From contig CP142731.1 in the NCBI GenBank assembly GCA_036630325.1, positions 1 to 64,000 on the forward strand: 64,000 nucleotides of DNA, in the 5' to 3' direction. This DNA comes from Vairimorpha necatrix (taxonomy: Eukaryota). Under the pieces are notes generated by a model. It was not told the origin of the DNA. It saw only the letters and a list, made by a program, of their open reading frames with translations, and did not search any database. Positions 1 to 64,000 of this stretch are shown in pieces (positions within the stretch are counted from its first letter, which is position 1; every line of letters begins with the position of its first letter). The position numbers and the translations under genes are program-made.

Positions 1-2605
1 ACCTAACCTACCTAACCTACCTACCTACCTAACCTACCTACCTACCTACCTAACCTACCTACCTACCTAACCTACCTACCTACCTACCTACCTAACCTAC
101 CTAACCTACCTAACCTAACCTACCTAACCTACCTACCTAACCTACCTACCTACCTAACCTACCTAACCTACCTACCTAACCTACCTAACCTACCTAACCT
201 ACCTACCTAACCTACCTAACCTAACCTACCTACCTAACCTACCTACCACCTACCTACCTACCTACCTAACCTACCTAACCTACCTACCTAACCTACCTAA
301 CCTACCTACCTACCTAACCTACCTACCTACCTACCTAACCTACCTAACCTACCTACCTACCTAACCTACCTACCTACCTACCTAACCTAACCTACCTACC
401 TACCTACCTACCTAACCTAACCTACCTACCTAACCTAACCTACCTACCTACCTAACCTACCTACCTAACCTACCTACCTACCTAACCTACCTACCTACCT
501 ACCTACCTACCTACCTAACCTACCTAACCTAACCTACCTAACCTACCTAACCTACCTACCTAACCTACCTACCTACCTAACCTACCTACCTAACCTACCT
601 ACCTAACCTACCTAACCTACCTACCTAACCTACCTACCTACCTAACCTACCTAACCTACCTAACCTACCTAACCTACCTAACCTACCTACCTAACCTACC
701 TACCTAACCTAACCTACCTACCTAACCTACCTAACCTAACCTAACCTAACCTACCTAACCTACCTACCTACCTAACCTACCTACCTAACCTACCTAACCT
801 ACCTAACCTACCTACCTACCTAACCTACCTAACCTACCTAACCTACCTAACCTACCTAACCTACCTAACCTACCTACCTAACCTAACCTACCTAACCTAC
901 CTACCTAACCTAACCTACCTACCTAACCTACCTACCTAACCTACCTAACCTACCTAACCTAACCTACCTACCTAACCTACCTACCTACCTACCTAACCTA
1001 CCTACCTAACCTACCTAACCTACCTACCTAACCTACCTAACCTACCTAACCTACCTAACCTACCTACCTACCTACCTACCTAACCTACCTAACCTAACCT
1101 ACCTACCTACCTAACCTACCTAACCTAACCTACCTACCTAACCTACCTAACCTACCTACCTAACCTACCTACCTAACCTACCTAACCTACCTACCTAACC
1201 TACCTAACCTACCTAACCTACCTAACCTAACCTAACCTACCTACCTACCTACCTACCTACCTAACCTACCTACCTACCTACCTACCTACCTAACCTACCT
1301 AACCTACCTACCTACCTAACCTACCTAACCTACCTAACCTACCTACCTAACCTAACCTACCTACCTAACCTACCTACCTACCTAACCTACCTAACCTAAC
1401 CTACCTAACCTACCTACCTACCTAACCTACCTACCTACCTAACCTACCTAACCTACCTACCTAACCTACCTAACCTAACCTACCTACCTAACCTACCTAC
1501 CTAACCTACCTAACCTACCTAACCTAACCTAACCTAACCTACCTACCTACCTAACCTACCTAACCTACCTACCTAACCTACCTACCTACCTAACCTACCT
1601 AACCTAACCTAACCTACTACCTACTACCTAACACCACCTACCTAACCTACCTACCTACCTAACCTAACCTACCTACCTACCTACCTAACCTACCTACCTA
1701 ACCTACTAACCTACCTACCTACCTACCTACCTAACCTACCTACCTAACCTAACCTACCTACCTACTACTACCTAACCTACCTACCTAACCTACCTAACCT
1801 ACCTAACCTACCTACCTACCTAACCTACCTACCTAACCTACCTACCTACCTACCTACCTAACCTAAAACCTACCTACCTACCTACCTAACCTACCTAACT
1901 AACCTACCTAACCTACTACCTAACCTACTAACCTACCTAACCTACCTAACCTACTACCTAACCTAAACCTACTACCTAAACCTACCTACCTACTACCTAA
2001 CTACTAAACCTACCTACTACTACCTAACCTACCTACCTACCTAACCTAACCTACCTACCTAACCTACTAAACCTACTAACCTACCTAACCTACCTACCTA
2101 ACCTACCTAACCTACCTACCTACCTAACCTACCTAACCTACCTAACCTACTACCTACCTACCCTACCTAACCTAACCTAACCTAACCTAACCTAACCTAC
2201 CTAACCTAACCTAAACCTAACCTAACCTACCTAACCTAACTAACCTAACCTACCTACCTAACCTACCTAACCTAACCTAACCTACCTAACCTACCTACCT
2301 AACCTACCTACCTACCTAACCTACCTAACCTACCTAACCTAACCTACCTAAACCTACCTACCTAACCTAACCTAAACACCTACCTAACCTACCTAACCTA
2401 CCTAACTATACCTAACCTACCTAACCTAACCTACCTACCTAACCTACCTAACCTACCTAACCTACTACCTAACCTAACCTACCTACCTACCTACCTACCT
2501 AACCTACCTACCTAACCTACCTACCTAACCTACCTACCTACCCTAACCTACTAACCTACTACCTACCTACCTACCCTAACCTACCTTAACCTACCTTAAC
2601 CTAAC
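1..2605. repeat. Telomeric array, composite (ACCT)n/(AACCT)n on + = (TAGG)n/(TTAGG)n on -
   Basis: The window starts inside a continuous C-rich array of ACCT and AACCT units in irregular order. Variant units (ACT, AAACCT, ACCCT, ACCTT) accumulate from ~1615 inward, and the array ends at ~2605. Confidence 0.97.
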
Positions 2606-2764
2606 ACGTAAGCTTTTAGACCTCAAACCTTTATGAATCTTTTGTTTAAAAAATTTATCACTTTATCAATATGTAACTAAAATAAATAAAAATTGAAAAT
2701 TTTAAGATAAATTTATCTAACTATCTTTATAATTCAATTATTTTTTTTCAGATTAATGATTATA

Positions 2765-2803
2765 TGTTATACTTTTATTTATTAGGAAAGTTCAACCTTA
2801 ACA
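2765..2803 (-). repeat. 3' mini-LTR (39 bp) of the Gypsy element
   Basis: Minus strand TGTTAAGGTTGAACTTTCCTAATAAATAAAAGTATAACA, directly after the polypurine tract. About 31/39 identical to 5873-5910. Confidence 0.8.
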
Positions 2804-5800
2804 TCCCCCCCAAACGGGTAGTCTTACGTTAAAAGCTTCTAATTAATCATTTTTATAATCTTCTAGGTCATAATGTCGTTTTTTAATGTATCTTCCGCTA
2901 TCAGTCCTTACAATAAAAGTATCATTCTCATACTTTCCCATCATTTTACCAACACTTGTAAATCTTCCTTTTGTACTTTTCATCTATTTACCCAAGTTTT
3001 TTATCTTGCGATTCTCACAGCCTGATCTACTTCAAATTTTTCTCTATGCTTTTGTTTAAACTTACTTGCATACACATTCTTTTTATTGTTTTCAATTAAG
3101 ACTTCTTTTCCTTGTTCTTTCCATGCTTCCATTGGTGTACATTTAATCGCTGTGTGTAGAGTGTTATTATAGGTTCTTGCAGCTTGTTCTAGTTTTTCCT
3201 CTGGGTTTCCTTCTTTTTTAATGATCATCGATTCCCTCATTGTTCAAATACATCGTTCTATTCTTCAATTACTCCTATGAGCTTCTAAACCTACTTTCCA
3301 TTGCATAATTTCGTTTTCTATACACCAAGTTACAAAATTCTTACTAAAAATTCCTTATGTTTTCCGTAATATATTCATCTAGGTATCTATCTCAAATATC
3401 CATTTTATAAAGTTTTAGACTAATTTCACTATCATTATTTTCTATCTTTGCGTCACATATTCTTGTTCTAAGTAGTCCATCCCTAATAGCACGTATCTTT
3501 CTATTTGCCAAATATCCAATACGTTAGAAAGTTTTTTAAATTTCTTAAATATTGTTACTTAATTGCTACCTCCCATCGTTTTTCTATTATTAATGCTACA
3601 TACTTCACAATTTTTTAGTGTTGTGGTTATCTGGTACTTCATACCGGACCAGTACCATCTTTGTTTAATCTTATAATGTGTTTCCTTAACTCCTCGATGA
3701 TTTAATTCCTCATGAACTCTACGAATTTCTGTACTCACTTATTTCTTCCTGTTGTATTTATGAATTACTCCTGTTGAGAACTTCCAAAAGTTTTTTCCTC
3801 TTCTAACCATGCGCTTTATTTCTTTCCTTTTCATCTATTTTTAGCCCGTTTCTACTTTCGCTGCTTTCTTTCACTTCGTTATTTTAAAATCTCTACTAAG
3901 AGCATCCACATACGTCATCCATTCGCCTTTTACATATTCAATAGTAGAATCATACTCTTGTATATATTATATCTATCTATTAATTATGTAATTATTGAAA
4001 AACGGTTTGTTTCTAATCATGGCCAGTCCTTTATGATTTGTCATTTATTGAAATTTACTTCCACCCAAATCTGACTCGATTTTCTTTATTCCAAATAAGG
4101 CTGCCAACATCTCTTTTTCACTAATCGTATACTTTTTATCTGTTGGTGTTATCATTTTTGATGCTCATTGTATCTGAATCCACCTTCCTTCTTTGTCTTC
4201 TTGCAATAGTATGGCTCCAATTCCCGTATCGTATGCATCTGTTCTTACTCTACACATTTTTTTTCTATCTACTATTTTTAAAATTTTAATTATCTTTAAA
4301 CCCTCTTTGATATCATAAAAGCTCTTTCCATATCTTCGGACCATTCCCATTATACATCTTTTTTTAGTGCTTCTGTAAGAAACGCTGACCGATAAGCATA
4401 ATGGGGAATAAAATTTCTTGATCAGCCTGCCCGTCCCTCAAATTCTCTAAGCTCATTTATGTTGTTAGGCCTTCTGTATTCTTTTGTCACTCGGAATTTA
4501 TTTTCCTTTGGTTTAATTTCTTCTCCGTAAATTGTTACTACAATAATTTTACTTCTCCTTTATATTGTATCTTTTTTAGTTTCTTTTAAACCATATTCTT
4601 AGAATTTTCGAAATATTTGTTTTAATAAATTATCGTGTATATTACTATCACTTACATGAATAATAATATCATCCATGTATACCTCATAACTTATCTAAAA
4701 CCCCGTTCATCACTCTTTGCATAATATATGGAGTATTTTTAAATCCCATTACCATGCTATTTCATCTGTAAACTCTAACATTTATCTCAAAAGTTCTCTT
4801 CTGTTTTTGAGCTTTTTCAATTTCTATATGATAGAATCCTTACTTTAGGTCTATAACCATAAATACTTTAGAACCTTGCGTTGCCCTAATAATGTCTCTA
4901 ATCAATGGCAATTCATACGGATCTTTTTAAACCAGTTCGTTTAAAGCCATCAAATCGAATACCGATCTCACTTCACTATTTGGTTTTTCTATGGGCTTTA
5001 TTAGGCTTCTCCATTCGCTCTTTGTCCTTCTGATAATACCTCTACTTTCTAATAAATTAATATACTTTTCTAACTTTTCTCGGAGTTTATAAGGAATATT
5101 TTGTTCCTTTTTAACTACTTTTACTCAATGTTTTGTTTTGATAGAACATTTTCTCCCGGTAAAGTATTTTATTTTCCCTTTGTCTTTTCCTAATACCTCA
5201 GGAAATTTTCCTTCCAATTCTTCATATTTATTAATATTTTTTCTTCTTTTATCTTGATTTGTATTTTTTATATAAAAACTGTTTCTTGAGTTCTTTCTTC
5301 CTACCTCCACTGGTAGTCTCAATTTAAAATCATTTCCTTTTAATATTTTCACTTTACTATAATCACGAATGCCAAAATATTTTTCACTTTTAATTTCATT
5401 ATTCTCTTCCTGCCTTCCTTTACGCTCCATACAACCTCTAGCTATATGTATATTTCTTCCACATATAAAACAATGTTTTCCTTCTCGTCTTTGATATTGA
5501 AAGTTTCTTCCTGGCACTGCTACAGTCCTAGTCAGATCTCTTTTTTTTTCTCTTTTTAATTTTTCTTTCATACCTCTACCTTTTCTTTTAGTTCTCTACA
5601 CCTTATTTTTTCCTTGTTCTTATTCTCTTTCTCTTCACAACTAATTTATCAATTTCATCAATAATATCATTCCAATTTATCATACTAATTAAATTTTTAT
5701 CAATAATAAAATTTTGAAGTTCAGTAATTACTTGTTTCGCCATTTCGTTGTCAAATCTTGTACATCTTTTTGCATTATGATGATTGTCTCACTCTTCGAG

Positions 5801-5872
5801 CTTCTTTTAGTAATTTATTGTTCTCTTAAACATGGCTCTCACTTGTTAACCTTTCGTATTTTGTGTTCGCCA

Positions 5873-5910
5873 TGTTATACATTTATCTAATAAGAGGTTC
5901 GACTTTAACA
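5873..5910 (-). repeat. 5' mini-LTR (38 bp) of the Gypsy element
   Basis: Minus strand TGTTAAAGTCGAACCTCTTATTAGATAAATGTATAACA, followed directly by TGGCGAACAC. Confidence 0.8.
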
Positions 5911-8900
5911 ATATAATTAAAACTTAAAGTATTTTTGGTGTAATTCTGCGAATAAATTTATTTAATTAAATATTGTAAAAGTTATAATTACTTCTTTATT
6001 TTGTAATATATATTATTGTAAAAAAAGTCATTTTTGTGTTTTAACATATTTCTTACTGGAAATATTCGTATTACACTAAAAAATAATATTGTTAGATATT
6101 CTACAAATAACTTAAATCTCGAATGCTGTACTATCGCATATATACAGACACAGGAGCATATACTCTATAGGAAAGCTCATGATAACCTCTTTGAATGATA
6201 AAATTAGATCATTATTCAAAGAAAGTAAAATGACGTAATATTTTCGAAACATTACGGACTAGATTCCAGTGATTGTTTGAAATACAATACGAATAACTAA
6301 TTACATTTATTTTTTTTACTATAATTATATGATTTTAAAATAGACCAATGAAAGTAATTTATATTTATCTAAATTTATATGATTTAATTTATTTTTTAAA
6401 AATAAAAAAATTTCGGAAAAAATTGTTTTTTGGAATTTTTTATTGAATATTTCTGCCTACTTAGGAGCTTCAAAGGGATGCGGCTTCTTCTAATGTACAA
6501 TCTTATTTATCTATGTATTTGCCCAACTGTTCAGGAAGTCTTTTATAATTACAAATGATATTGTGTCTATTTTTTATGTTCTCTTTGGGATTCAATTTTC
6601 TATGGTAGAAAATATAATATTTTTAAAATAAGAGGGTGTGTAAATATTGGATAATTGAAAAATACATCCTATAAAAAATTATTTGATTATATGATCATAA
6701 TACCCTAGATATGTTTTTTATACTTTTATATTTCTTTTTATAACCGTTAGATTTAGTTCTTGCTTGATCTATATATAATTTCAATTATGAAAAGAACTAG
6801 TTTGATATATTTGATAACCAGTTAATATTGATAAATTTTTGCGATTCAGATATGTTGTATATTCAAAATTATTGCGTAAAAAATTGCGGATAGTTATAAG
6901 GTAACTTAACATTCTCTATGAAAATGTTTTACTTAATGTGTTATGTTAAAATGAAATTTTATATAATAAAATAATACATGGATTATTAAAAAATTCTAAT
7001 TTTAAATTAAATCATTAGATTGATTTCATTCTACGAAAATCAAAATGTTTATATCAAAAAAACTCATAAAATTTTTTTTGTTTTAATAATTAAAATTTAT
7101 TCTATCAATTTATTATTATATTTTTTTATCAATTAAAATTTATATTAAATATTATTTTATAATTATTAGAAATCGTCTTTCGCATCTATGTTTTTATGAA
7201 ATTGGGTTTATGCATTAAAATATTTTAATTAAACTTTTTTCTGTCATTATTAAAGATAAAAATTGTTTTTTTAATTTATACGCTTTTTCATGATATTATC
7301 CTTAAATTTATATAAATATCTATTAATTAGTTGCATTGGGGTTTGTTTATACTTTTAATTAACCCTCCTTAGCTCTTATTGATTTATATTTTTTTATTCT
7401 TCGGTTAGTGTAAGATATTTTTCAATAAATTTACTAATATTGTATTTATTTTGATTTTATATTTACTATAATTATAGTATTAATAATAAATACTTGGAAT
7501 ATATGATATTTACTAGAAAAATTCACATGAAGAAATACGAAATTCATTTCCAGCCTAGTTTTGTGTATAAATTTACAATTTGTATATATATTGATTATTT
7601 TATTATGTGAAATGTATTTAATATGTTTTCTGGCCATTATTAGATTTATTTCTCAGATATTTATCATTGTTCCCATTGAAATAAATTTTTTTTTATAATA
7701 TTTTTACAGATTATAACCATAAATTTTAAAATACTGTTGTAATAAAGGATAACAGAATGAAATGTCGTTCGTTGTGTTCCTCTATAGATGTTTATATTTT
7801 ATTTTCGTCGTATGTCTTCATGTTTCTTTGAGACTTTAAATTTTTATTTATGAATTTTCTTGATATTATTGGGTTTTATACTACGTTTTTATAATAATTT
7901 TAAAAACTTAAGTTTTCATATAAAAATGAGTTTTTAGATATGAAGAACTCTCCAATGCTTCCTTGCGTTAAATAGTATTTTTTGTTTTACTAAAAGTATG
8001 ATTTAAATCATTTATAAAACTTTATGGAATAATGATTGTAATTTAATAACTTTAATCTACAATTTTCTAAAACCCTCCATGATACGGTTTCTTTTGAAAT
8101 ACAAATATATGAAAATCTTTAATAGATTATTTTTAATATTTTTATAAATTTTTCGTTATTGAATCATATGTTTCTCGTGTAGGTTGAATATATCATCATG
8201 TTTAACAATGTAGGTGTAATATATTGCATTGTTATTTTTCGATTGATATATTATTTTTAAAAAAGATTATGTCGTTATATGTTCTAAAACTATTACTTAT
8301 TCTAATCAGTCGTATGTGTATTATTATGAGCAAAATTTGAAAATATAAAATTCAATTTAATGATCAAAAAATATTATTTTCGTTTTAGTGGTTGAGACTT
8401 CTAGATTTATTAGTCGTGAAAATTTAATTGTATAAAAAGTTTCTTTTTTTTACTTATATAGAATAATTTGAACGTTTAGTTTGAATGTTTTTATTAACTT
8501 TTCTAAAAGAAAATATTTATTTTCAAAACGAGTTTTAGTCCAATATGTTTTTTTTTTTTAAAAAAAAAGTTATCCTACTACTTTAAATAAATTTTCTTTT
8601 AAAATTTTTTTTGTAATATTAACCTCAATTATCTGTATTGAAATTGCATTTCGAAAAATATTAGTTGTTTCAAAGATTTTTATTGGCATTATGTTTATTT
8701 TACTTGTAGATAAATCCTTGTGTATTAAAAATTTATATTGAAGTAAAAATGTTTCTTGACCTTTTCATACTTAGATTTAATCTAACGCTTTTTTTAAACT
8801 ATAGACAATATATAATATCAAAATTAAATTTCAATTTTTCTTCAAAAATATTGACTATAACGTTTATATTCAAATTTTTAATCTAAAAATTTTAAATATC

Positions 8901-11816
8901 TGATAATTATAAGACAAAGAATGAAAATTTTTATTTTATAAGAGGAATTTTTAAGTTTAGTTTTTAAACTAATAATATTTTGTTTTTTTTTGCTAAATAA
9001 TAAAAAATTTTGTTTTTTATTTAAATATGTGTAAATGAATTCTTTATATTCTAAAAATTTAATTTCTTAAAAATAATTTTAATTTTCGAGACTAACGATA
9101 TATAAATATAATTTAGGTATTTCTTTTCCAAGTTCAAATTTGTTTTCTCGAAGTATTACCATTATGTTAATATTTTTATATCCAATTCTAACCTTTAGAC
9201 TTTTTTTTAGATTTTGTAAATAATTTTGAAAACGTCAAGGTGAAATATTATATAGTATTATAATTGAGAAATATTTTCTATTAACATGTTTATAGTGGGT
9301 TTTTTTTAAAATTAAGCTAGTGTTAATCATGTTTGTTTTATGTTATTACTCTTATATTAATTAAAAAAATTTTCTGCTTAAATATATAAATTTTGAAATA
9401 TATATTCCGTTTGCGTGTAACTACGGTATATAAGATTTTTTATAAATATAGCATTTCATAATAAATTCTTAAATGTTATTAACTGTATTGTGTTTATATG
9501 CATTTCTATTCCCCCCCCCGTATTTTTGGTTTTATTTTTTTGCAATATGCGACGCTTTTTTCAAAATCTCGAAACCGTTTTATATACAACAACCTTGTAT
9601 TAAATTGTATGTGCTATTGTTTACATTTAATTATTCATAATTGGAAATTTACTTATTATTTCTTATTATATTATAATATGGAAAATGTATTTAAGTAGGA
9701 TTTCCCAAGGATTTTTGAAATTTAAGCATAAATGTTGTTTCTAAACAAAATTCTTTTTAACGTCACTGAACGATTTTACAATGAATAGGTCTGTTTTTAT
9801 ATTGTTAATTTGAAATAAATTTCTTTAAGGCGTCTAATTATACGTTAAAAAAATGATTTCCCCAATGAATTTATAATTTTACGATAAGTTGAATGAATTT
9901 GGAATTTTTTTCTTTCGTATATAAACTTTTTTTATAATATTTCGTCTTCATACTTAAATTTAAATCTAATTATTATATAAAAATATTTTACTTAACGGAT
10001 TTAGGAAGTATTATATACAACAAAAGAGCGAGTATCAAATATCTAACCGATAGATATTTGAATTGTTTTATTATTTCATTAAAATTAATAATATATTTTT
10101 ATAAATATGATAAAAGTATTAATGATTTTACTTTTTAGAATTTTTTGGTCATAATTTCTAATTTTGTGTGGTCAATATGATTGTAAACAACAAATTAATA
10201 TTTGTGACAATTGTTTTTTACCAACTTCGATTTCAAAAGTCTACAATGTTTTATAATTGAAACTTCTTTAGAATTCTATAAACCAAAAAAATGTAATATA
10301 CGAGGTCAATCTTAATTCGTTTAAAATTTTTATATAATATTTGTTTTCGATTTTTTACCATTAGTAATTATTATACTTAATAACGTGTACATATTGGTCA
10401 TATATAAATATAATATAGTTGATTTTTTAGTATAATTTTCATTTATAAAATCGTCTGATATGTTCTAGATAATTAAAAAAAAACTTCATTGCTTGTGTTA
10501 ATTGTATTTAAATTATACTATATGCAATATTGGGATTTATTTTTGTTTATTTTGGCGTAGATTTTAATATAAAGGAAAATTATATTTCATATAATATCTT
10601 GATCGTATATCTTTATTTTGAATTCTTATGTATTTATCTTGCAAAGCAATATGTATGAATCATATGTATATCTTTTCTTTATAATACCTTTACTATCTAG
10701 TTATAATAAATGAATATTATTTGTATCACTTCTAAAACAGTGCTATATTGATCGTAAAAGAAATTTTATTTGTTTGCTTTCGTATTTATACCAAATGAAA
10801 AAGCGAAAGATCAAATTTAAATTATCTTGTTATTACCTTCGTTGTAAATTTAGATAGATTGTAGAGTTCGTTTTAAAAATATTTTTTCTTATAACCAATA
10901 TGCTCCTTCTTATTTTTCCTTTTTTTCTCTGTTCTTCACAGATAAAACTTTGCTACTTTTAAGTTAGAAGGCTAAAAATATTTTGCTATTAATAACTTCA
11001 TGATTGTGTACTTGCTTCATAGATATTCCTTGCCCTTCATATACAAACTTTTTTTTTAAATTTTATTTTTATTGTAATAATTTTTTAGCCACGTAAGTTA
11101 AAGGTTAATTATTTTGCATGGATAAACACATATTGTAAATTTTTCATTTTTTGTTGTATTATTGGTGTGTTGGAACGTTGTTGGTGAATATTTAATAATA
11201 AACTTCGTCAATGTCCTTATGATGCAATCGTTAATACACGTTTCCAAGAAACCTTTGACTTTAGTTTATCAAATTTGGTTTTTTAACATTTATTTAAATA
11301 CTTTAATGCATATATTTAAATTATTTTAGTATGATTTAGTATCTTATTTCTTGTATATAAATACATCCTAATTTAATAAAAAAATAGATTGTTAGACTAA
11401 ATTATGTGTCTTAAATGATTGATAAATATAGTTCAGACATTTCTTGTAATTAAATCACTCAATGATTGTGTTTTAATTTCTTTTTGAAAGAATCTAATTT
11501 ACTTGTTTGAAAAATATGTTTTTATCTTGAAAAAAGAAATAAATTATCGTTTAATTAACGTATTTGTCCAAAGCCGAATTAATATGTTTAACTTTACATC
11601 AATTTTTTATTTTTATGTCGATTCTGCACATAATGCGTTTCATAATTATTTTATATACAGCAAATTATATACTTACGTACTCATATGAAAAGACAAATAA
11701 ATCTAAATTTCTTAAAATATTAATTATACAGATACATACGTTGGCAACCTCTAAAAAATGTACTAAATTGTGCAAGAAATAATTTTCAAAATAACAATAT
11801 TAATATTTTCTTCAGA

Positions 11817-12188
11817 TGTGTGAGGCTGCAGACCTGCACTGACGAATCTTGTTTATAATTATACAATGATTATTGGTACTGTCAAACGTCTAAGAATATT
11901 GTAAATAAACATTAGACATGTTTGACATTCACAAACTAAAAGTAAGACAAGTGCATGTCACATGAAGTACTACTAATTCAGTAGAACTTCGGTTTCATGT
12001 TTGTTTGATTACATCTCAAAGAGTTTGACAGTTAATCTGATTGACTATTTAAACGGAAATTACCCCTGACCTACAATTCCGATGAGCAGCAAAACAAACA
12101 AATAATATAAATCAATATATAAATTTAGACTCATCACTTCAACTTCGGATCAGGCTTCATGCCGGATATAAGATGTGTAGATACTCCA
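11817..12188 (+). mobile_element. Solo-LTR-like insertion
   Basis: GC-richer 372-bp block bounded by TG...CA and flanked on both sides by TTCAGA (11811-11816, 12189-12194). Contains TATTTAAA...AAATTACCCC, a promoter-like motif, at ~12046-12067. Confidence 0.55.
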
Positions 12189-12246
12189 TTCAGAAAAAAA
12201 ATTATTAATTTGTCATATATTTATTTCTTGTTTTTATGTTTAATTC

Positions 12247-14223
12247 TTAGGTATTACCCGGGAGTTGGCCATTCCTCAGATAGCATTCTATAATGCTTCT
12301 CCCGGGTATTAAAGTTTTATTATAATGCAAGTTGTATTATTAAATCTGCCTCCTTGGGCTTTATCTTTCCTCTTCTAAGGATGCATTGATTGATACTGCT
12401 GATTTCTAGACTCCTCTGTTCTTATTGACATATTTTGGTGGGGGTAAAAATAAAAAGAAAATATTTATATATATGTTAAATTCTAGAAAATTCATTTGGA
12501 GAAAAAATATAATAATGTGGTAAATAATACCACATACTACCTCCTCTAAAGGGTCAGCAAATTAGAATACGGATTCCTTTGAAATCATCAAATAGTTCTT
12601 TCCGCCGTTTCCTAGTAATAGCTGGGTTGGATATTTTAAACCTCAAATCAAGGTATGAGTTCAACTTATCATATTTGAGCTTCTCAGATTCACCGTTTAC
12701 TCCATATCTACATATGCTAAATGGCATCTGCTGCATTTTATTTTTAAGGCAATGTTTTCTGAAAGTGTCAAGATTTAATTTATTTTTATTCTGATAACTA
12801 TCATATTTAGATGTTGCCAAATCTTTTACCTGTTGATGGTTATCTTTAATTTTATCAGGAGGCTTGCTTCTTTCTTTGTTATTTATTTTAATAATTCTTG
12901 AATATATATCATCTGATGGTATCGTATCTTCTGTCCTTTTCACAAAGTCAACTATATTAGTTAAGACTTTAGCTGGAAGATTGTCTATTTTTTATTCAAA
13001 TTCCTTTTAATACAAAGTCGTATTATTTATTCTTTCATTTATACATTTCTGTTTATTGATGTTTTATTTTCTTTTTGTTTCTGAATTAATAGGCAGTCGG
13101 TTTTTTTATGTTTTTCATCCAATTCATCGTTAGGAATTTTCTTTTATCATTAACGATTTTCCTTCTTTTTTTATTTCTCTATCGTTGGCTTTTGGTTTTT
13201 GTAGACGACAATCTCGTGTATCTTGTGATCTTGCTCGATGTATAGAGCACCACTTATCACTTTTAAAGTATCTTCCTGTTTCTTCAGGTCTTTCATAATT
13301 CTCTTTCTTAGATATAAATTGAGATATTCGTGTCCCTTCCAGTTTCGCATGTAAAATAATCATTTCTTCCAAATCTTGTGAATATTTTAATAGCTCGTCC
13401 ATTCCCTTGTTTTTCATTCCTGATTTTAAAACTTCAATGGCAGTTGATCTGTCTAATTTTCTCTCAAAAATCTGTTTCAATCTAACATCATTTCCTTTTT
13501 CGATAGGTTTATAGATAGTCCGTATATTTTAATCATCGACTCTAGTTTCTCATAGTAATCTGCTATACTTCTATAATTTACCTGTTATACAGTTTCCATC
13601 TCTGTTAATAATAAAGCTACATCATTTTTTGGATATCTAAATTCTAGTAGTTCTTTTTTTTGTTTTTTGAAGCTTTTCTTATTTAGCTTATCTTTCACCT
13701 TAGAATCTTCAATCAAAGAATGGTAGATGAGTCCCATCTGCTCATCAGTCCATTTATTGGCCGTTCCTAGCTCTTCAAACAGCTTGAGATGCTTTATGGT
13801 GCAGTCTCGTTTTACATTTTTCGATTTTTTCTTTAACCACTATTGTAGTTCCTTCTGTGGTTTTATCAAATGTGGTATATGCTTCATCATCATTTTGTTT
13901 CTCAGTATTATTACTTTTTTCTGATACTAATGAGCTCATTGAGGTATTACCCAAAAGTTAGCTGCTCCTCAGATAGCATTCTATAATGCTTCTCAGAGTA
14001 TTAAAGTTTATTATAATTAAAGTTGTATTATTAAATCTGCCTCCTTGGGCTTTATCTTCCCTCTTCTGGGGATGCATTGATTGATACTGCTGATTTCTAG
14101 ACTCCTCTGTTCTTCTTGACATATTTTGGTGAGGGTAAAAATAAAAAGAAAATATTTATAGAAAAATAAATTCTAGAAAATTCATTTGGAGGAAAATATA
14201 ATAATGTGGTAAATAACACCACA
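12247..14223 (-). mobile_element. Internally deleted LTR retrotransposon with ~285-bp LTRs
   Basis: Highly similar LTRs at 12247-12534 and 13940-14223, a perfect 5-bp TSD (AATTC), and a PPT-like AGAGGAGGTAGTA before the 3' LTR. Gag-like remnants LFEELGTANKWTD and KWCSIHRARSQDTRDC. No RT visible. Confidence 0.9.
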
Positions 14224-20189: not shown

Positions 20190-20778
20190 TGTGGTGTTAG
20201 CACCAGGGATGCGGCCTGTTTGTAAATAGCACTCGATGGTGCTCCTCCCTGCAATATGTTTATGATTATTATAATAGTAATATTGTTTATTTATTAAAGA
20301 GTGTTCTCTTGTCCTTCTTGTCCTGTATCAACGGGACTTTGCTATATTTAAAATAGCTTTCTAAATAGTTTTTATTATTATATAATTTATTGATGGTTTC
20401 TCTCTTTCTCTTATACTCCATACCCTTCACAGACAGACTTTCTTTTATATTTTATTTTTAATTTATTATTTCTTGTCAACACTAAACACAAACATTGGCG
20501 TACTTACGAATGTAGTAACGACCATCCAACTTTCGTTTGTTTGTTTGTGTGACTCATCTTGACAGGTCATTTGAAATGCTTGACATGTCTTTAGACATCA
20601 GTGACAGCTGATGGTTTTAGCAGCTGTCCATGTGATGTAGTAATATACATCACACTTCTCATGTTGATCGACCTTAGGGGTAAAATAAAAGGAAAATATT
20701 TATAGTAAAATATTTTCTAGAATATTCGTTTGGAGGGAATATAAAATAAAAATAAGTAATGTGGTAAATAATACCACA
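20190..20778 (-). mobile_element. Solo LTR related to the 12247/13940 LTR family, carrying a nested insertion
   Basis: TGTGGT...ACCACA termini with a perfect TSD (ATAAA). The right ~100 bp (GGGGTAAAATAAAAGGAAAATATTT...TGTGGTAAATAATACCACA) match the 12247 and 13940 LTRs. Confidence 0.8.
20474..20654. repeat. Nested TG...CA repeat (solo-LTR-like), copy A
   Basis: Reverse complement of 22046-22196 (e.g. CACAAACATTGGCGTACTTACGAATG). Flanks TTTCT/CTTCT match 4 of 5. Confidence 0.7.
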
Positions 20779-21319
20779 ATAAAGCATTTCTACTCCCTTA
20801 ACTTCTACCAAATACTTGCGCTGCACTATCTCCGACTTAGCCATTGGGATTTGATTTGGTAAGAATATTTTTATATACAAGCCTCTAATCGCATCATTAA
20901 ATCAATAAATATATTAAAATGAAGATTTTAAAACCTCTGTATAGATTTAGCGTATTAATATTATGTCTATATAAAAATAAATCATCTAGATTCCAGATGG
21001 CTCTTTCTCTTACACAGAACACTAAAAGCAAACTTATTAAACTTCTTTGTAACTAATGAAATAATTGAACAGATCTCCATCTTATACTATATCTTGTTTG
21101 TATAATAACAAACTTCACAAATTTCTACATCAAGAGTGCCATAATCGGCTTTTAGATCCCTATAGAATATACAGCTATGGTATTATGAAACACAGAAGGA
21201 CAAATTATATGTAATAAGAATTTAAAGTGTGAATATATTTAAGAAATTAATGATCAATTCATTACAAGAGATACTTTTCATAATATTTGTTTAGTCTATC
21301 AATTTTGAAATATTATATT

Positions 21320-21448
21320 TAGTGACGTCTGAATGTCCGCGAGTAGATATCTTTATACTTAAAATAAATTTAAATTTTTTCTTACCGAGAATCGAACCTT
21401 GGACCTTCGAAATCCTAAATCAAGGTGCAACTATTCTGCCAAGCACAC
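21320..21448 (-). mobile_element. tRNA-derived SINE-like head or pseudo-tRNA
   Basis: Minus strand has A-box-like TGGCAGAATAG and B-box GGTTCGATTC at tRNA-like spacing, but no intact cloverleaf or acceptor stem. Confidence 0.5.
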
Positions 21449-27078: not shown

Positions 27079-29232
27079 AAAAGCTAAATTAGCCGTATCT
27101 TTTCCTTAATGCATTCTCGTTTGGGTTTTAAAAAAATTCAAAATAAATTTGTGCTGAAATACGTACTTATATTATAAACAATTTGGTATTTAAAGTATCG
27201 TCTAAAATTCGATCAAAACTATAATTTTTAACATTTCTATAGGTAAGATTTGGTGTTTAATGCATAAAAATAAAAAAAATACCTTTCATCATATGATTGT
27301 ATTTATTAATAATGTTATTATATCATTCATTGCACTATAATTTTATTTTAGAAGTGTCTATCGGAGAGTTTTAATCTAATTCTTTTATAAAAAATATTTG
27401 AATTATAACAAAATAATGTATATTTTAAGTATATATGCAATAGACCAAGCTAAATTTTGTACTAAGTCATCTATACAGAACAGAATTATAAAAGAATCTT
27501 AAAAAGTTCTACATTACTATCCTTCGATAAAAAAACTTTAATAAGTATTAGTTCGGTAAGGCAACACGCAAATAAAATAGAATTTTTTGGGATTCAATTG
27601 TAAGATTTGTTAGGAACTCCCAGTATACGATTTTAAGGGATTCAGATATAACATGTGTAAAATATTAAATCTATTAATATATAAATGTAAATTATATCGA
27701 CATATCATATTAATTTATTATATTTTTTGAGTTTTATAGTCGTAACGTATTGTATTATTATATTTTTAAATAAATGTATAGTTTTATTTTTCCGTTAAAC
27801 ACAATGATTTTTAATACATAATTTTTGTTAATTTCTATAACCTGTATCTATCAAATCAATCGTCATTTTGATAATTCAAATTCTTAACAAATAAATTTCA
27901 TTATAATAGATAGCAAAATTTGAGATTTTTAATATTTTGATTCTTTGTATATGCACGCAATGAAAAAAGAAGGTAAGATGTATATAAATGTAAATTGTAT
28001 TGTCTCTTTGTTTTTTTTAGAAATTTTGTGGATAACAAAAATAATTTGTAAAATGAATTTTATAGTATTAATATTGCATTTTATTTTAAATTTTGCTGGA
28101 TACATTAAATTATCTAATAAAAAGTAGATATCTTAAATATTTTTCTATAGCAATCATTTACTTATCTAAACATTTAACCAACTCTCAAAACATTACCTAC
28201 GTAGGATCTTTTTTTGTTCTTGAATATCTTCTTAACAAATATTAACAATTTTAATAAAATGTATATTACACATACTAAAGATAAATTTAATGCACTTCCT
28301 TGTTATCTAGATTACTCTATCTTTTAATCAAATATTGTATTTATCTATCTTTAAATTAATCTTGAATTCATATATCTTTAATACAAGGTTTATGGTCACT
28401 ATACAATATTCATCAATAATTTAGTCCATTACAAATTTTCAATAAACATCTATATATAAATATCTAATATTTTATTAAAAGATTGCTGCTTTTAGTTCTG
28501 TATTTTTTAACCAAATATTTTCGTAAAAAATACCACTACATGTATGGCTTAAGCCTATTGTATTTGCGATTTTGGATTTTTTTGATTCATATTTGGCTCT
28601 AGAATTTGCTGAACCTAAATCAGGGGGTCGTAAAGCCGTGAATACAGTTATATAATTGATAGGATTTTGGAAAGCCTAGGATGTGTCAGTCCTCATAGTA
28701 CAAAAAAATGTTTCGGTCATTAAAGAGGGAGATAAATGTAGAGATTAGAATTTTAATTGAACTTTAGTATAAGGTTTGTTAAATATGATCGAATTGTTAC
28801 AAAAATACAATCCATTACATCTAATTAAATTTGTTAAATCTTTAAACTTACATTTCTAATATTTTTCTTGACATCATAATTAAGAAAATAAATTTCTTTT
28901 CTGAGTAACAATTTATTTTTGTTTTGTGTTGATATTAAATTTATAAAAAATGAAATGTATTTTTTATTATAGATTTTCTTGTTTTATATATAATTTATAG
29001 AATTATAATGGGTTTATATAATATTTTATAAATTTGAATCAAATAAATTTAATATAATATAAAAGAGGGGGTTTGTAATTTACATTTAGTAGCTAATTCA
29101 TTTTTTGGATAAAAAATATGCACAAGAAGGCGAATAAAGATTAATAGTGATAATAATTCAGAAATAGTTGTGTGAATGTGATATTTATAGAAAATTATTT
29201 AAACAAAAAAAATAACATAATTTAAGGCTTAT

Positions 29233-29958
29233 TGTTAAAGATAAATGTATGTGAAGGGTTAATTTATAAAATATATATTCTCAACATCCCGCGCTGAATT
29301 TACAACTAAGTATTTTATATATTTGTACTTTTAACTCGCTCACTACTTGGCTCTCATAATAATAGTGCAATTTTATCTTAACAGACCATGGGCTGCTTTA
29401 TTCTTTTGCATCTTAATATCTTCTCTTGTTTTGGTCTTTACAGTTCTTTCTTTCCCTGTTGAAATAAATTTCCTCGATAAGCATGAAAAAAAATTTTAAC
29501 ATGTCTTCTTAACATTAAAACCATGATTTTATCTATCTATTTCATTATTCAACTATAACACTGTTTTTTTTTTGATTTTCTTCTCTTTTTAAATCTCTCT
29601 GGATTTCGAATACTGGTGGTTCAGCTATCTTCCCACGATAGCTTTAATATTAATGGTGATTACCACTACACTCAATATCGACAACTTTTATGTCAGATAT
29701 TACAAGATCAAAACTGTTTCAAATAGCAATCCATAGCTACTCTAAGTCTTCACATATGCAAGACATCACCTTCTCTTCTGTTAGACATCCAACACCCCAA
29801 TCTGTCATATACTGCATTTTTTTTACGTCTCATGCCTCGGCGGAACTTACAACCTTTTCTTTTGTTTATGTTTGGGTTCGATCATTTTTTTTATTGTCCA
29901 CCATGTTAAAGAAAATTGTAAGTTAAGGGTTAAATTTTTTAAATATATATTCTCAACA
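29233..29958 (-). mobile_element. Non-autonomous miniature LTR element (TRIM-like) with 54-55-bp LTRs
   Basis: Direct repeats at 29233-29286 and 29904-29958 (TGTT...AACA). PBS TGGTGGAC abuts the 5' LTR and a degenerate PPT (GCGCGGGA) abuts the 3' LTR. About 620 bp of decayed interior. No TSD. Confidence 0.8.
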
Positions 29959-32900
29959 AAAAAAATGATAAAATTATTAATATTAGCAGTTCAAAAAAAA
30001 ATAGTAATATCTATAAGCGATGTTAGTTATCACTAGATTAATAAAAGTACAAATTTGTATGTTTAAATGATTTCATTTATCGTATTATTATTGTATAAGT
30101 TTATTTTTTAAATTCATTCTGCAGTCATAATGTCTTATCTTAAAAAACATTAAAATCATATATTTAAATGACAGATGTTCTGGACGAATTAGATTATCCT
30201 CTTGACATCTTTAGCATAATAATTCCAAAACAATGGGTTTGAATTAAATATGAATACATTTGAATTTACGAATATGTGCATTAATAAAAAGAAGACTTTA
30301 AAAACGCATTTTTATATAAAGCAAACATATAAAATCAAGAAATGTAATATAAAAATAAACATTATTTGTTCTATATTATTATTAGATATGTATAATATAT
30401 TTTTCTATTAATTTTCAAATTTGATCTCATATGATTTTTAGATTTCCTATAGTATTTAAGGCATTTACTTTATTATTTCTTTATGTTTTTAATTAAACTT
30501 TAAATGTGTACAAGAACAGCTATTTCGATTTTACGCATGTTTTACTTATCATATATATGATGTAAAATTTTTCATCGTTGGTCTTGCTATTTTGGTTAAA
30601 AACAATATAAGTAATATTTTTTAACGTCAAAACAATTGTACTCATTTTGATTTTACTTAATTAACTTATTTTTCATAGATAAATCTTTTTATCGTATATA
30701 TATTGTTTACATAACTCATATATATTTTAAACAAAAAAATTCTGTGCACTTTGCAGACTTTTGATCAGAAAAAAGAAAATACATACGGACCAACAAACAC
30801 GAAAATACAAAAAAAAAAAGGTTTCTCATAAAGATATACTTTTTAAAGCCAATTTACAGAGGAAACAAAATTTCATTACAAAGTTCTAGTAAAATTATTA
30901 TATACTATTACTATTATGATCGTTCATATTTGTTTTTTATAAAAAGCCTTTTTTGATAATCTTTATATACTTTTTTTTTCCGTAAATGAAGATAATATAA
31001 ACCACAATTTTTAATATTTAAATGTCTTTCAGTTTATACTTTTCTTTTCATGTTGCTTTAAGATAAATACAAAAGTTTAAATATTGTGAATTTGAAAAAT
31101 ATTAAACTGTATATAATGGAGCTGGTAGTTTTTGAGCTACAACGACAATTTTAAGACAAGTTTTTGTAACAAAAGAAATAATTTAATATATATTTTTTTT
31201 GTATTTATATTAATTTCTATTTTATTTTTTTAACAATTCCTTTTGTATATAATATTTCGATTTTTTTAAATTTACTTCTTCCCTTTTTTTATTCAAAAAA
31301 AATTAATTACTTCAATATAACTTGACGAAATCAAATATTTGAATGAATATATTGTAATCTTTAAACATCACAAATTACTTATTCGATAACATTATCTTTA
31401 TCTATTCTTTGTCCATACAAGAACTTTTGAATGCTTTATTGTCTATGAGGATTTATTTTCATTGTTAAAAATTTCTAGATAAAAAAAATTCATTTTCGTT
31501 TGAATATCATATTGTTTTGTTACTAATAAATTTTTTCTCTGTTTATAAATTCTTTTTTATTTGTGTTATTAAATTTATTCAATCTTACACCACTCGTAAA
31601 GGTAATATAATCTAATACATTTAATTAGGTAATACCTAACTTTTAAACATATTGTACCATAATTTGAATATTTAAATCATAATTATACAGCGTAATTTTT
31701 AATATCTTTTATCAACTTTAATCAGAAAATTTGATTTTTATTCATGCATATTTATATTGATGTATTATATGACTTAATGAAGATATATTTGCCATATAAT
31801 AATTTGATTTGCAAGATTTTAAAGAATTTCTAGCTTCTAGTAATTTGTTTATCTGAATATGAATTTAAGTTAAATAAATTTACCATAGATATTTGAAACA
31901 ATTTATCTTATGTTTTTTTATGTGCTGTAGTATGTGTATAATATATACGAGTCGACTCGTATGCATATTCTTTTCGTTGATTTAGTATCAAATAATATTA
32001 AATCTTTTATTCGGTCAATTTTTTAGTGTGATATCTATAACGACTATCTGATGTGTCCGAATTCTCTTTATCATTGTTGCTAGATATAAGTTATGTTTTA
32101 TAATACTCGATATTATTTTATTGCATAGGCTTCTTTTAAAATCTAAAATAGTTCAGACTAATGTACTCAAGTTTACATTATGAATAGTCGATTCTAATAA
32201 GTATAAACCAATTCGTATTGTGAATGTGCTCTTATATGTTTTAAAGTTTATATTTCAAAATCATTCTATATTTGAAACTTTATATTATACTGCATACTAT
32301 ATTATTCAAAAAAAACGGCTACTATCAACATTATACTTGGTCTTCTAATTGGTACTTATATAGATTTATTATTATAGTTAATTTACTATACTTTTAAAAT
32401 CTATTTTTGATATTTATTTAATAATGCGACATATTAATTATTTATTTTTAAATTTTTATTTTTTTATTTTTTATGATAAAATTAGTATTTTAATCTATTT
32501 ATTTTCTAGGTTTTCTGTCTTTTTTATATTGACAATACATATTGTAAATATTTGATTATAATTTTACTTTGAAGTGTATAAAATGTTCATTGTTTAGGGT
32601 AAAAGTCATATGAGCATTGTTATTCTATAACTTTGTGTTTATATATATATGAGATAATCATATTTTATCATATGAAATATATAATTGAAATGAAAAAGAA
32701 TTAGTAGTACCTTAAGTTGAGAAAAAAATAAATAATAAGTTGTTCAGTAAAACATGTGTTTTAAATCTGAAAATTTATAATAAACAATGTTTGTATGTAA
32801 AATATTTCTTGACTTAGAAATTCTAAGTATATGTTTTAAAAAAAATAAATATAACGAAAAAATTTTTTTATATGAAATGTAGTAATATATTCATTGTGTT

Positions 32901-53169: not shown

Positions 53170-53672
53170 GTACAATATAAGAATTTTTTTAATTTTATAC
53201 CATCGTTTTTTGTAAGTTAGAGGTCTTCATCTACTTATTTTATTCTTGTTTTCTCAATATGATATTATTTGGGTTCGATGTTACAAATTAGATGTATTAA
53301 GTGTGTATAATTTATCTATATAGAAATGAATTTAGTTTATTTTTTCTGGGAAACTCAGTTCCGGAATATTGTCGGAATTGTTTTCTAGAATTTACTTAAC
53401 CCTTTCACAAAGCAATATAATAACGTTCATTCAAATAAAAAAAAGTGTATGAATTGAAATATAAAACATAAGGAAGTCATCTCATTGAAAGATATAGAAT
53501 AAAGCGATATAATGTTGTCATTCGAATTAAATAAGATAACCAATTATTGGGGTTTCTTTATTACATCTCTCTGTTTTGATATTCCGACCAAAAATGGAAA
53601 CTCAAAAAAAGGAGGTACGTACCATAAAACTTTTATATAAATTCGCTTTCAAAACGGGGAAGCATATGCTAG
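53170..53672 (+). mobile_element. Diverged non-autonomous Helitron copy
   Basis: Similar along its length to 62462-62983. Ends in TTCGCTTTCAAAACGGGGAAGCATATGCTAG followed by T. Confidence 0.7.
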
Positions 53673-58118: not shown

Positions 58119-60350
58119 TTATTTTTTATCATAATTTTCCAAAATCTTGGTTAAATTTCTGTGAAATTTCACTCCTATATTGTAATCATTCAGAATTTCA
58201 GATAATTCATTTTCACACAGCAACATTCGAATTTTTTTAATTTTTTTTTCCGCAAATTCTTTAAAAATTTTTTTGTTACTAATTTCATTGTCCAAAAGAG
58301 ATTCAAGAGATATTAAAAAATCATTTTTTATAGTATTTCTTATATTTAAATTAATTAACTTGTTTAAATCTCGAGAGAAAATTTCAAGTTCGTCTTTTTT
58401 ACATTCATAAAGCAATTCTGCATTAATTCCTGCCGATACATTGGATACATCTTCTGTCAAACATTTATTACTAAAGATCTTTTCAATTACATTTACTCCG
58501 TTTTGACGTAATCGTTTTTCAAACATTTTAGTTTTATTTTTATCATATAAATAATTAATTTTTTTATTTAAAGCATCATGCTTAATTTTACATAGTGCCG
58601 TAGATAATCTTTTTTCATAGAAACTATAAACAATATTTTTCAATTCTTTTCTATAACGATATAGTGCTTCGTTAATACGTTGGTTTCTTGTGTTTTCTGA
58701 TAATTTTTTTCTTATTATTTCATTATTATTTTCAACTGTAATATTATTTAAGCAAAAAAAATCAAAAACTCTATCTTTTTCAATATAAAAATGTACATAT
58801 TCAAGTATACACAAATTTTGCTCATATCCTGTATATAATGATGTTATCGAAAAAATTTGCTTCCATATATTGTTCATGTATGCCTGAATATCTTTAAGAT
58901 GAAATTTTACAGCGACGTGGAATATTTCAATTAAATCGATATTTTTTATGACATTATATTGATTATCACATGGTATAAACCCTGCTTTTTTCTTGATAAG
59001 AGCGGCGATATTGCTCAAAATTAATAATATTGGTTTATCACTAACATCATTTTCATTTATAAAACGTTCAACTTCGTATAATAAACAGATTTTTATCAGG
59101 AAAGTACTCGCTAAAAAACTACAATTGCATAAATTTGTTATTATTTTTTCTATAAGCAGATTTTTCGATGTTTCATCAAATTCTTTGTTTCTTAAAATTT
59201 TACTTAGATTAAATTCTTTATACAAATTATCAGACAACAATATATGAAGTAAAATCAAATAAATTGCACTTCCTCTTTTATTTAAGATTTTTTTTAAGAA
59301 GAATTCTGCACGACCACCTGTTTCTAATAATCTAAAAAGCAATTCCACTTCGTTATGACATTCACCTAAAGTCTTTATATAATAGGTTTTTCTAAAAAAC
59401 TCTTGAAATTCCAAAGATGTCGAATTTGTAAAAATGGCTTCATGTTGTAAAGAATATATATATTCCTTGTAATTTTGTGTAAAACGTATTTCGTCATTAT
59501 CCATTTTAATTTTGAATATATTGTGATAAAATTCAATTTTATTTAACGTACAAACCGAAAAATAAGATATATTACGCTTAACGATTTTATCAACATATAT
59601 AAATTTATACAATTCTTTAAGGTGAATACATATTTGGTGGTCAATTTCATTAATATGTTCTCTTATCATAATTGTATGTGGAATAAGATTTTCAGAACCA
59701 AGTTCTTTAATATTTAATTCAAAGAAATAATGAACCTTGTCTATATTTATACAAATACATATGTAGCGGGAATTGCTCCTTTTAATATAAGAAATTGGAG
59801 ATTGTGGAAAACATAATCTACCCTGGACAATGCTAGTCTTAAATTTTAAATTTGTAAATACTTTGTACCAAAGAACATCATTTTCCATGATGTATTCATA
59901 AAATAGTTCATCTTTGAGTCTTAGTTTTTTTTGTTTAATATTTTCGTTTTTTATATGTTCAATTAAGTTCTTAAAAATAGGACGAACCTGGAAAAATAAC
60001 GGATTATAAATCAAAACGTTATAATCAGCCAAATAATTTCTATGTTCCATTAAAATAATGTGTTTAAATTCTTTAACTACAGTTAAAATAGATTTGTTAG
60101 TGCAATTAATCTTTACATTTTTAGTTTCTTGTCTTTTTTGAAACCCTTTGATCTCTACTATAATATCTACATTAATATTATTTTGTCTGATATCAAAATC
60201 CATTAAAATTCTCAAATATCGTTTATCATAATCAATTGTAGTATAATCACCGCTTTCTATTTTTTTTATTAGTACCAAATTTATCTGATTAGAAACATAT
60301 TGACCCGATTTTATAAATAAAATAGTAAAAGCAAATTTAACGACATCCAT
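58119..60350 (-). CDS. Hypothetical 743-aa protein, predicted secreted, paralogue of 45252-47426
   Basis: Long ORF starting MDVVKFAFTILFIKS, with TTACCCCAT before the ATG and AATAAA overlapping the stop. Shared motifs IK.IE.G, CTLN.I, IL...GSAI, I.LIE.F, L.TG and NNE.IRK. Confidence 0.93.
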   Translation of the reverse strand: MDVVKFAFTILFIKSGQYVSNQINLVLIKKIESGDYTTIDYDKRYLRILMDFDIRQNNINVDIIVEIKGFQKRQETKNVKINCTNKSILTVVKEFKHIILMEHRNYLADYNVLIYNPLFFQVRPIFKNLIEHIKNENIKQKKLRLKDELFYEYIMENDVLWYKVFTNLKFKTSIVQGRLCFPQSPISYIKRSNSRYICICINIDKVHYFFELNIKELGSENLIPHTIMIREHINEIDHQICIHLKELYKFIYVDKIVKRNISYFSVCTLNKIEFYHNIFKIKMDNDEIRFTQNYKEYIYSLQHEAIFTNSTSLEFQEFFRKTYYIKTLGECHNEVELLFRLLETGGRAEFFLKKILNKRGSAIYLILLHILLSDNLYKEFNLSKILRNKEFDETSKNLLIEKIITNLCNCSFLASTFLIKICLLYEVERFINENDVSDKPILLILSNIAALIKKKAGFIPCDNQYNVIKNIDLIEIFHVAVKFHLKDIQAYMNNIWKQIFSITSLYTGYEQNLCILEYVHFYIEKDRVFDFFCLNNITVENNNEIIRKKLSENTRNQRINEALYRYRKELKNIVYSFYEKRLSTALCKIKHDALNKKINYLYDKNKTKMFEKRLRQNGVNVIEKIFSNKCLTEDVSNVSAGINAELLYECKKDELEIFSRDLNKLINLNIRNTIKNDFLISLESLLDNEISNKKIFKEFAEKKIKKIRMLLCENELSEILNDYNIGVKFHRNLTKILENYDKK

Positions 60351-63500: not shown

Positions 63501-64000
63501 TTATTTTTATAAAGCAATTTAATTATACATACCAAATTAAACAACATGTTTTAGAATAGTCTATAAAAAAATTTGCAGCATAAGGCATACATTAAAATTG
63601 TATTGCTAAAAAATTTAATAAATATTAGTATAAAAATCATTTATAAACAGAAGTTTCCGAAAAAATATATATCGACTTATAAATGACAACATATTGTTAT
63701 TCTGAAACTATATTTCCTGGAAACATTAAAGGCGCCTATAATAATAAGATTTTTTGAATCAAAAATTTTGAGACTAAAGTGCGTAAAAATTATATAATGT
63801 ATAAAAACAATTTATCTATAAATAATGAAAAAAACTTTAAAGATTTTATTTTGATATAGTATCTAATAAAGTATTCATTTTTGTAAAACCTTTTATATAA
63901 TATTTCCTTCTTCTATTAATAACAAAGAATTTTTTTCGTAATTGGTCGAAACATTTGACAAAATCTTCATCGATATTATCTATAGATTGAAGTTGGCTAT

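Follow-up and report, generated by a model that had tools for sequence, protein, structure and literature searches.

The locus examined here raises the question of what a pair of direct repeats of about 55 nt, set 617 nt apart in gene-poor subtelomeric DNA of the microsporidian Vairimorpha necatrix, represents: an LTR retroelement reduced to its signals, the remains of a larger one, or host sequence that happens to be duplicated. The repeats lie in the first 64,000 nucleotides of contig CP142731.1 (GenBank assembly GCA_036630325.1), and this 64-kb stretch is the window to which all counts and coordinates refer. The window begins with a telomere of about 2.6 kb (1–2600) in which CCTA units are mixed with CCTAA units (TAGG and TTAGG on the opposite strand); among the sources used here, a composite TAGG/TTAGG telomere is published for one microsporidian only, Nosema muscidifuracis (PMC11592040). 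Beyond the telomere the window has 20–30% G+C and is poor in genes. Only three ATG-initiated frames reach 150 codons, all of them on the minus strand (45252–47426, 724 codons; 49430–50341, 303 codons; 58119–60350, 743 codons); each has CCC 2–3 nt before its ATG, in agreement with what is described for genes of microsporidia (PMC2803860, PMC11592040), and none belongs to a Pfam family.

The repeats bound a segment of 726 bp (29233–29958), which lies about 26.6 kb inward of the point where the telomere stops, and the segment has the anatomy of an LTR retroelement. Its 5′ LTR (29904–29958, minus strand) is 55 nt long and runs from TGTTGAGA to CTTTAACA (full sequence TGTTGAGAATATATATTTAAAAAATTTAACCCTTAACTTACAATTTTCTTTAACA); the repeat quoted in an earlier sequence-only reading of this DNA is the exact reverse complement of 29904–29958. 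The 3′ LTR (29233–29286, minus strand) is 54 nt long and the same as the 5′ copy at 48 of the 55 aligned columns, with six substitutions and a single one-base gap. BLAST of the element against the 64-kb window returns this pair with E = 1.85e-12 and no third repeat or second copy of the element. The likeness between the repeats ends exactly at TG and CA on both sides. A TGG site follows the first copy and a G-run precedes the second on the minus strand only; because the plus strand has neither a TGG site nor a purine run, the element is read on the minus strand, as the sequence-only reading had it, and its call of very short LTRs likewise stands.

Four direct-repeat pairs were recovered by self-BLAST outside the telomere, and one of them, 29233–29958, has TG..CA edges and a TGG behind the first copy as well as at least five purines among the six bases before the second; the 38/39-bp LTR pair of a gypsy element described below fell under the threshold of this control. 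By our own arithmetic for an A+T-rich composition, the chance that all of the edge signals coincide at edges fixed by the repeat is far below 1e-6. No target-site duplication of 4–5 bp is present (the minus-strand flanks are TTTTT and ATAAG), which may be due either to decay, the LTRs differing at 7 of 55 columns, or to recombination. The segment is probably one old copy, no longer active, of a TRIM-type LTR retrotransposon that encodes no protein, lying on the minus strand in a Nosema-type microsporidian.

Other repeats are present in the window. Direct repeats of 286 nt, 1.7 kb apart (12249–12534 and 13942–14223), match each other at 91%, and part of the sequence recurs a third time at 20676–20779; on the minus strand they carry a T-run+ACCCC motif, resembling a host promoter, followed by ATG. 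They were considered as LTRs of the mini-element kind and rejected, having no TGG or purine signals; they probably represent the 5′ ends of genes, duplicated within a subtelomeric family. At 62469–63525 there are two units of about 520 bp in tandem, 79–82% alike and each with AGAATTTATTTAACCCTT, and a related piece is located at about 53370–53404.

The signals required for priming are present but short. The candidate primer-binding site TGGTGGAC (29896–29903, minus strand) adjoins the 5′ LTR with no spacer. It is complementary to a transfer RNA end of the form ...UCCACCA, which we take to be that of alanine tRNAs (G3:U70 rule), over a match of only 8 nt. The 8-mer occurs once in the window, where 0.33 occurrences are expected and 30 of 100 shuffles contain at least one. 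ARAGORN finds no tRNA gene in the 64-kb window. The ATG that the sequence-only reading had pointed out at CA|TGG is indeed spelled at the junction, but it arises automatically wherever a ...CA end meets TGG, and it opens 12 codons only.

A second motif with a possible relation to tRNA lies 13 nt beyond the primer site. This is GATCGAACCC (29874–29883, minus strand), the complement of the T-loop/T-stem-like sequence GGGTTCGATC, and it lies beyond a run of eight A residues, at a distance from the TGG that is 4 nt greater than canonical tRNAs have. The shorter ATCGAACC is found three times when both strands outside the telomere are counted, against about 0.5 expected by our own composition arithmetic. 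The box may be a second tRNA-complementary box or the relic of a longer copied primer; coming from one decayed copy, it is a lead. Another ATCGAACC is found in a tRNA-like relic at about 21380–21445 (minus strand), which ends in a GGTTCGATTCTCGG-type T-arm and is called by neither ARAGORN nor Rfam.

Just past the primer site is AATAAA, followed by an A-run (29890–29895, minus strand). This hexamer occurs 436 times on both strands of the window outside the telomere, and it has probably arisen here through decay; a transcript polyadenylated at this signal would end prematurely, which is a point against the explanation favoured here. At the other end of the interior, the candidate polypurine tract GCGCGGGA (29287–29294, minus strand) has its GGGA end directly before the 3′ LTR. 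Five of its last six bases are purines, and the tract is short, interrupted and weak.

Three other arrangements for priming were considered and rejected. Self-priming of the Tf1 kind would call for a complement of the primer-site region, which the LTR does not contain; a palindrome in place of the primer-binding site is contradicted by the junction itself, which reads TTAACATGGTGG; and a full plus-strand tRNA ending at 29903 fails on its 5′ part, which lacks an acceptor complement, with both Rfam and ARAGORN blank.

The whole interior (29287–29903) is 617 nt long with 32% G+C and 62% purine on the minus strand. What remains of it between the T-loop-like box and the purine tract (29295–29873, minus strand) is non-coding. 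The best minus frame of the interior has 13 stops in 206 codons, and the frames that open behind the two repeat copies are 12 and 7 codons long. No frame on either strand exceeds 88 codons; the one of that length is on the plus strand, and its best explanation is that the antisense of a purine-rich strand is usually open.

Searches with these frames and with the DNA returned no relatives. The two frames of at least 70 codons in or overlapping the element have no match in Pfam. Within a length band of 113–361 residues the read-through minus frame has no relative, whether by a word-indexed protein search or by exhaustive phmmer over 1.84 billion protein representatives, and the plus-strand frame of 88 residues has none in the length band of 48–154 residues. 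Rfam gives no match at E up to 10 over 29000–30200. The LTR pattern has no match in metagenome and viral contigs, and an interior 23-mer has none in prokaryote genome contigs and viral contigs. A 20-mer across the LTR–interior junction does match two loci in metagenome contigs (L001 and L002); both were set aside as bare chance matches of 20–21 nt with no extension. Pfam, the protein searches and tblastn reveal no autonomous Ty3/gypsy coding sequence (gag, reverse transcriptase, RNase H or integrase) in the interior. The element appears to be protein-less as far as can be seen, and its description as non-autonomous agrees with a 617-nt interior having no usable frame and no protein relative.

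Reverse transcriptase and integrase would have to be supplied from elsewhere, and the window contains one example of a possible source. A decayed Ty3/gypsy element of 3.1 kb (2765–5910, minus strand) has LTRs of 38/39 nt and many stops. One of its frames matches two overlapping Pfam families of the RT-associated RNase H-like kind, RT_RNaseH_2 (1.2e-08, above the cut-off) and RT_RNaseH (8.8e-05, below the cut-off), and its frames also show a zinc knuckle and the zinc motif of an integrase. Its signals include a spacer-less ...AACA|TGG junction and a plus-strand primer site of the form GGGGGGGA|TGTT. A target duplication of 4–5 bp is possible (TTATA / ATATA).

The two elements share TGTT..AACA ends, a spacer-less TGG site and a GGGA-ended tract, and the sense strand of the gypsy element has a composition similar to that of the mini-element interior (30% G+C, 66% purine); the likeness in purine content also favours the minus-strand orientation of the mini-element. 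The start of the gypsy LTR, TGTTAAAG, is the inverted complement of the end of the mini-element LTR; the LTRs are otherwise unrelated, and a tblastn search of the window with the three minus frames of the mini-element gives no match in 2765–5910. The sequence-only reading is supported in proposing a second element of LTR type without sequence relation to that at 2765–5910. Unlike LTRs are no argument against mobilisation in trans, because published miniature elements differ likewise, having no more in common with their partner than the primer site, the purine tract and a short motif (PMC3281118). For the same reason little can be made of a test that the sequence-only reading had suggested, namely that the repeat never pairs with retroelement coding sequence, as the LTRs of miniature elements can differ from those of the autonomous partner (PMC3281118). 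To judge from these shared signals, compact Ty3/gypsy elements such as 2765–5910 are the likely helpers.

Whether the segment is a lone relic or a member of a family was addressed with contigs of two public runs (X1 and X2, from two studies), which were aligned on a 4-kb stretch around the element at 85% likeness. Both runs contain about 40% of the sampled words of this stretch. Two further runs (X3 and X4) have no cover over 29242–30045 and are not counted as evidence. The stretch is matched by 122 contigs of X1 and 157 of X2, most of them less than 95% alike to it, and the same position is covered by up to 3–4 contigs of one run. Some contigs skip part of the sequence. All five of the skip joints in X2 and two of the five in X1 fall inside the element, with the remaining three X1 joints in the right flank, and one skip, from 29606 to 29818/29819, is seen in both runs. 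A 243-nt X2 contig spans the 3′ LTR together with 155 nt of the interior. Wherever the loose ends of the relatives can be compared with the window copy, their G+C is higher, which fits the window copy being an A+T-decayed member. From the contigs of these two runs, together with the one copy in the window, the element probably belongs to a multi-copy family with many diverged and deleted versions.

These data bear on a rival reading in which the segment stands outside any propagating protein-less family: a compact autonomous gypsy element would have inserted here and then had its coding region deleted, leaving an isolated wreck. A decayed copy of the autonomous type is present in the window (2765–5910), the window holds a single copy of the mini-element, and deletion joints are many among the relatives, all of which such a wreck would lead one to expect. 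It would also be expected to leave some protein-level trace of gag, reverse transcriptase, RNase H or integrase, and there is none, nor does tblastn of the three minus frames match 2765–5910; moreover, the same LTR–interior junction and interior recur in several versions in two runs, which is not expected of a private deletion. We regard a private wreck as unlikely, and a propagating protein-less element as the better reading.

The edges of the element are also the edges of the likeness among contigs. Eight X2 contigs diverge just before 29904, with a mutual agreement of 0.51, and six contigs of X2 and four of X1 depart just past 29958. These contigs leave exactly at 29904 and 29958 into mutually unlike sequence (agreement 0.51–0.6). 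Summed contig depth is not a copy number and is taken as a hint only; in X2 it is 899–13,924 over the element and 102–103 over most of the right flank (80 in the last covered bin), and in X1 it is 8–109 over the element and 7–19 over the right flank. The left side is less simple. An X2 contig of depth 1082 continues 28 nt past the 3′ LTR into the left flank, and the left-flank bin 29108–29241 has a depth of 1299 in X2, against 13 in the next bin leftwards; no repeat within the window explains this depth at 29108–29241.

The left flank raises the possibility that the multiplicity is a segmental duplication of subtelomeric DNA, carrying either a single insertion or a repeat pair that did not arise by retrotransposition. 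The deep X2 contig that passes the LTR and the deep left-flank bin suit such an account, as do the missing target-site duplication and the position of the element at a distance of about 26.6 kb from the telomere, and conserved subtelomeres, of about 20 kb, are described for a Nosema species with the same composite type of telomere (PMC11592040). Against it, the contigs exit precisely at 29904 and 29958 into unlike sequence, the right flank is mostly at a depth of about 100 whereas the element reaches 13,924, and TG..CA, TGG and GGGA at the exact edges would be very unlikely in a duplication that did not involve LTRs. Duplication of subtelomeric blocks may account for part of the multiplicity; as an explanation of the whole it is distinctly unlikely, and dispersal of a protein-less LTR element remains the preferred reading of the copies.

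Depth is also uneven within the element, being about tenfold higher in X2 over 29510–29958 than over 29242–29509. This unevenness could mean that the abundant part (29510–29903) is some other many-copy non-coding repeat, for example a SINE-like repeat with a tRNA head, that was captured between the short LTRs or inserted into the pair, and the T-loop-like motif at 29874–29883 would agree with a tRNA origin. However, neither ARAGORN nor Rfam (E up to 10) detects tRNA-derived sequence, be it in the LTR as in the TRIM Helenus or at the head as in a tRNA-headed SINE, no A-rich tail is present at either end, and the T-loop-like motif lies antisense, as a primer site would, with the complement of CCA at its end. 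A captured repeat is very unlikely on this evidence, and the interior is better regarded as belonging to the LTR element itself.

The LTR also resembles a host promoter. On the minus strand the 5′ LTR contains a TATA-like run (29951–29935), AAATTT (29937–29932) and ACCCTT (29930–29925). It carries AAAAAATTTAACCCTT, which fits the AAATTT-like and CCC-like signals described for microsporidia (PMC2803860, PMC11592040), and AAAAAATTTAACCC matches the order and spacing of these signals as tabulated upstream of ribosomal-protein genes in five microsporidia (PMC2803860, Table 1). In other Nosema species a T-run+ACCC(C) motif lies immediately upstream of expressed transcripts, ACCCTT being the motif of N. 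apis (PMC11592040). ACCCTT is present in both LTR copies (29925–29930 and 29254–29259) and again at 50343–50348, one base ahead of the ATG of the 303-codon ORF; the TATA-like run and the motif common to the LTR and the host gene at 50341 had both been noticed in the sequence-only reading, correctly.

As a bare hexamer ACCCTT is barely above chance: the window has 19, against 22.65 in whole-window shuffles, and outside the telomere the 19 compare with an expected 13.5 ± 3.0, a number reached in 1 of 40 simulations. The 9-mer TTAACCCTT is the same in both LTR copies and all seven differences between them fall elsewhere, which is not significant with so few differences. This 9-mer occurs five times in the window, where 0.85 occurrences are expected.

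The CCC of the LTR is located 22 nt before the junction ATG, against 2–3 nt in all three long ORFs of the window. The suggestion that the LTR is essentially a host core promoter therefore holds for the content and order of its motifs and not for the spacing of CCC and ATG, which is unlike that of host genes. The host-type box appears instead to be placed for a start of transcription inside the LTR, with an R-U5 of about 15–20 nt; for Cassandra the R region is stated as 18 bp (PMC10886601). Because every LTR must carry a promoter, a promoter in this one is an economical case and not a new principle.

The same motifs invite the view that the pair of 55-nt repeats consists of host promoters that became duplicated and have nothing to do with mobile DNA, their AAATTT and ACCC content being like that of host upstream regions. 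But no ORF follows either copy (12 and 7 codons), the distance from CCC to ATG does not correspond to that of host genes, and the TG..CA ends, the TGG site and the G-run would be left unexplained. Duplicated promoters are extremely unlikely, and we return to the protein-less retrotransposon in proposing how the element could have worked.

RNA polymerase II would start within a few bases downstream of the AAATTT/ACCC box, near position 35–40 of the 55-nt LTR, giving a transcript with the short R-U5 (about 15–20 nt) noted above. A host tRNA with the 3′ end ...GUCCACCA (alanine-like) would anneal to the 8-nt site, perhaps aided by the T-loop-complementary box 13 nt on. Reverse transcriptase, RNase H and integrase would be provided in trans by compact Ty3/gypsy elements of the same genome. 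After insertion, the copy in the window would have drifted towards A+T and lost any target-site duplication.

A more specific version of this proposal is possible but doubtful. In it, the element represents the first TRIM-type family in Microsporidia, its 55-nt LTR would amount to an AAATTT/CCC core promoter between integrase-recognition ends, the tRNA site would be in two parts (8 nt and the T-loop box), and a high copy number would have been reached in a related strain by way of protease-less gypsy helpers of 3 kb. Were it true, the 55-nt LTR would be shorter than the repeats of about 85 nt of the SMART elements of grasses, which are called the shortest reported non-autonomous LTR group (PMC10886601). 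Confirmation of the family genome-wide would extend the shrinking of microsporidian LTR retrotransposons to their parasitic derivatives, and would mean that about 55 nt suffices for a promoter, an R region and both integrase ends. Such elements escape standard LTR finders, whose minimum LTR is near 100 nt, and are left as unannotated 'intergenic' DNA. The window copy itself is dead and tells nothing of host biology.

Among known systems, the budding yeast element Ty3 has an 8-nt primer-binding site that abuts the LTR, extra tRNA-complementary boxes and LTR ends of the TGTT...AACA type; it is autonomous, with the initiator methionine tRNA and LTRs of 340 bp. The mini-element is like Ty3 in its candidate 8-nt site abutting the LTR and its TGTT...AACA ends, and differs in that its possible second box is a single decayed 10-mer.

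TRIMs are protein-less elements of less than 1000 bp with two LTRs, a primer-binding site and a polypurine tract, described from plants, hymenopterans, cestodes, bivalves and fungi (PMC10886601). The mini-element resembles them in its length below 1000 bp with two terminal direct repeats, its lack of protein, its candidate primer site and purine tract, and its presumed mobilisation in trans; it differs in having LTRs of only 54/55 nt, a microsporidian host and no retained target-site duplication. The SMART element FRetro129 of grasses is likewise protein-less with very short repeats, of about 85 bp, and shares the primer site and purine tract, but not LTR sequence, with its presumed autonomous partner (PMC3281118). 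It is 292 bp long, depends on copia elements and keeps target duplications of 5 bp (PMC3281118), whereas the mini-element is 726 bp long with shorter LTRs and likely Ty3/gypsy helpers.

The literature searched, which was judged mostly by title, yielded no protein-less LTR element in Microsporidia, and the terms 'non-autonomous' and 'PBS' do not occur in the main text of the survey of Anncaliia algerae (Parisot 2014, PMC4202319). Among the entries of Table S1 of that survey covered here, all but one, a fragmentary one of 4,063 bp, have ORF coordinates and none is a miniature element lacking protein; the LTR lengths in the table are 45, 50, 73, 90 bp and upward (PMC4202319). The closest in LTR length are retro L and retro S, with comparably short LTRs of 50 and 45 bp; these are coding elements of 3127 and 3806 bp, and the ORF of retro L starts at position 32, inside its LTR (PMC4202319), whereas the mini-element is non-coding and has no detectable sequence relationship to any protein. 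The claim of an independent example of an ultra-short-LTR design is upheld in that the window has a second short-LTR element, but the design itself was already tabulated, with A. algerae LTRs of 45 and 50 bp (PMC4202319). With very short microsporidian LTRs already on record, the element at 29233–29958 is a small extension of a known kind.
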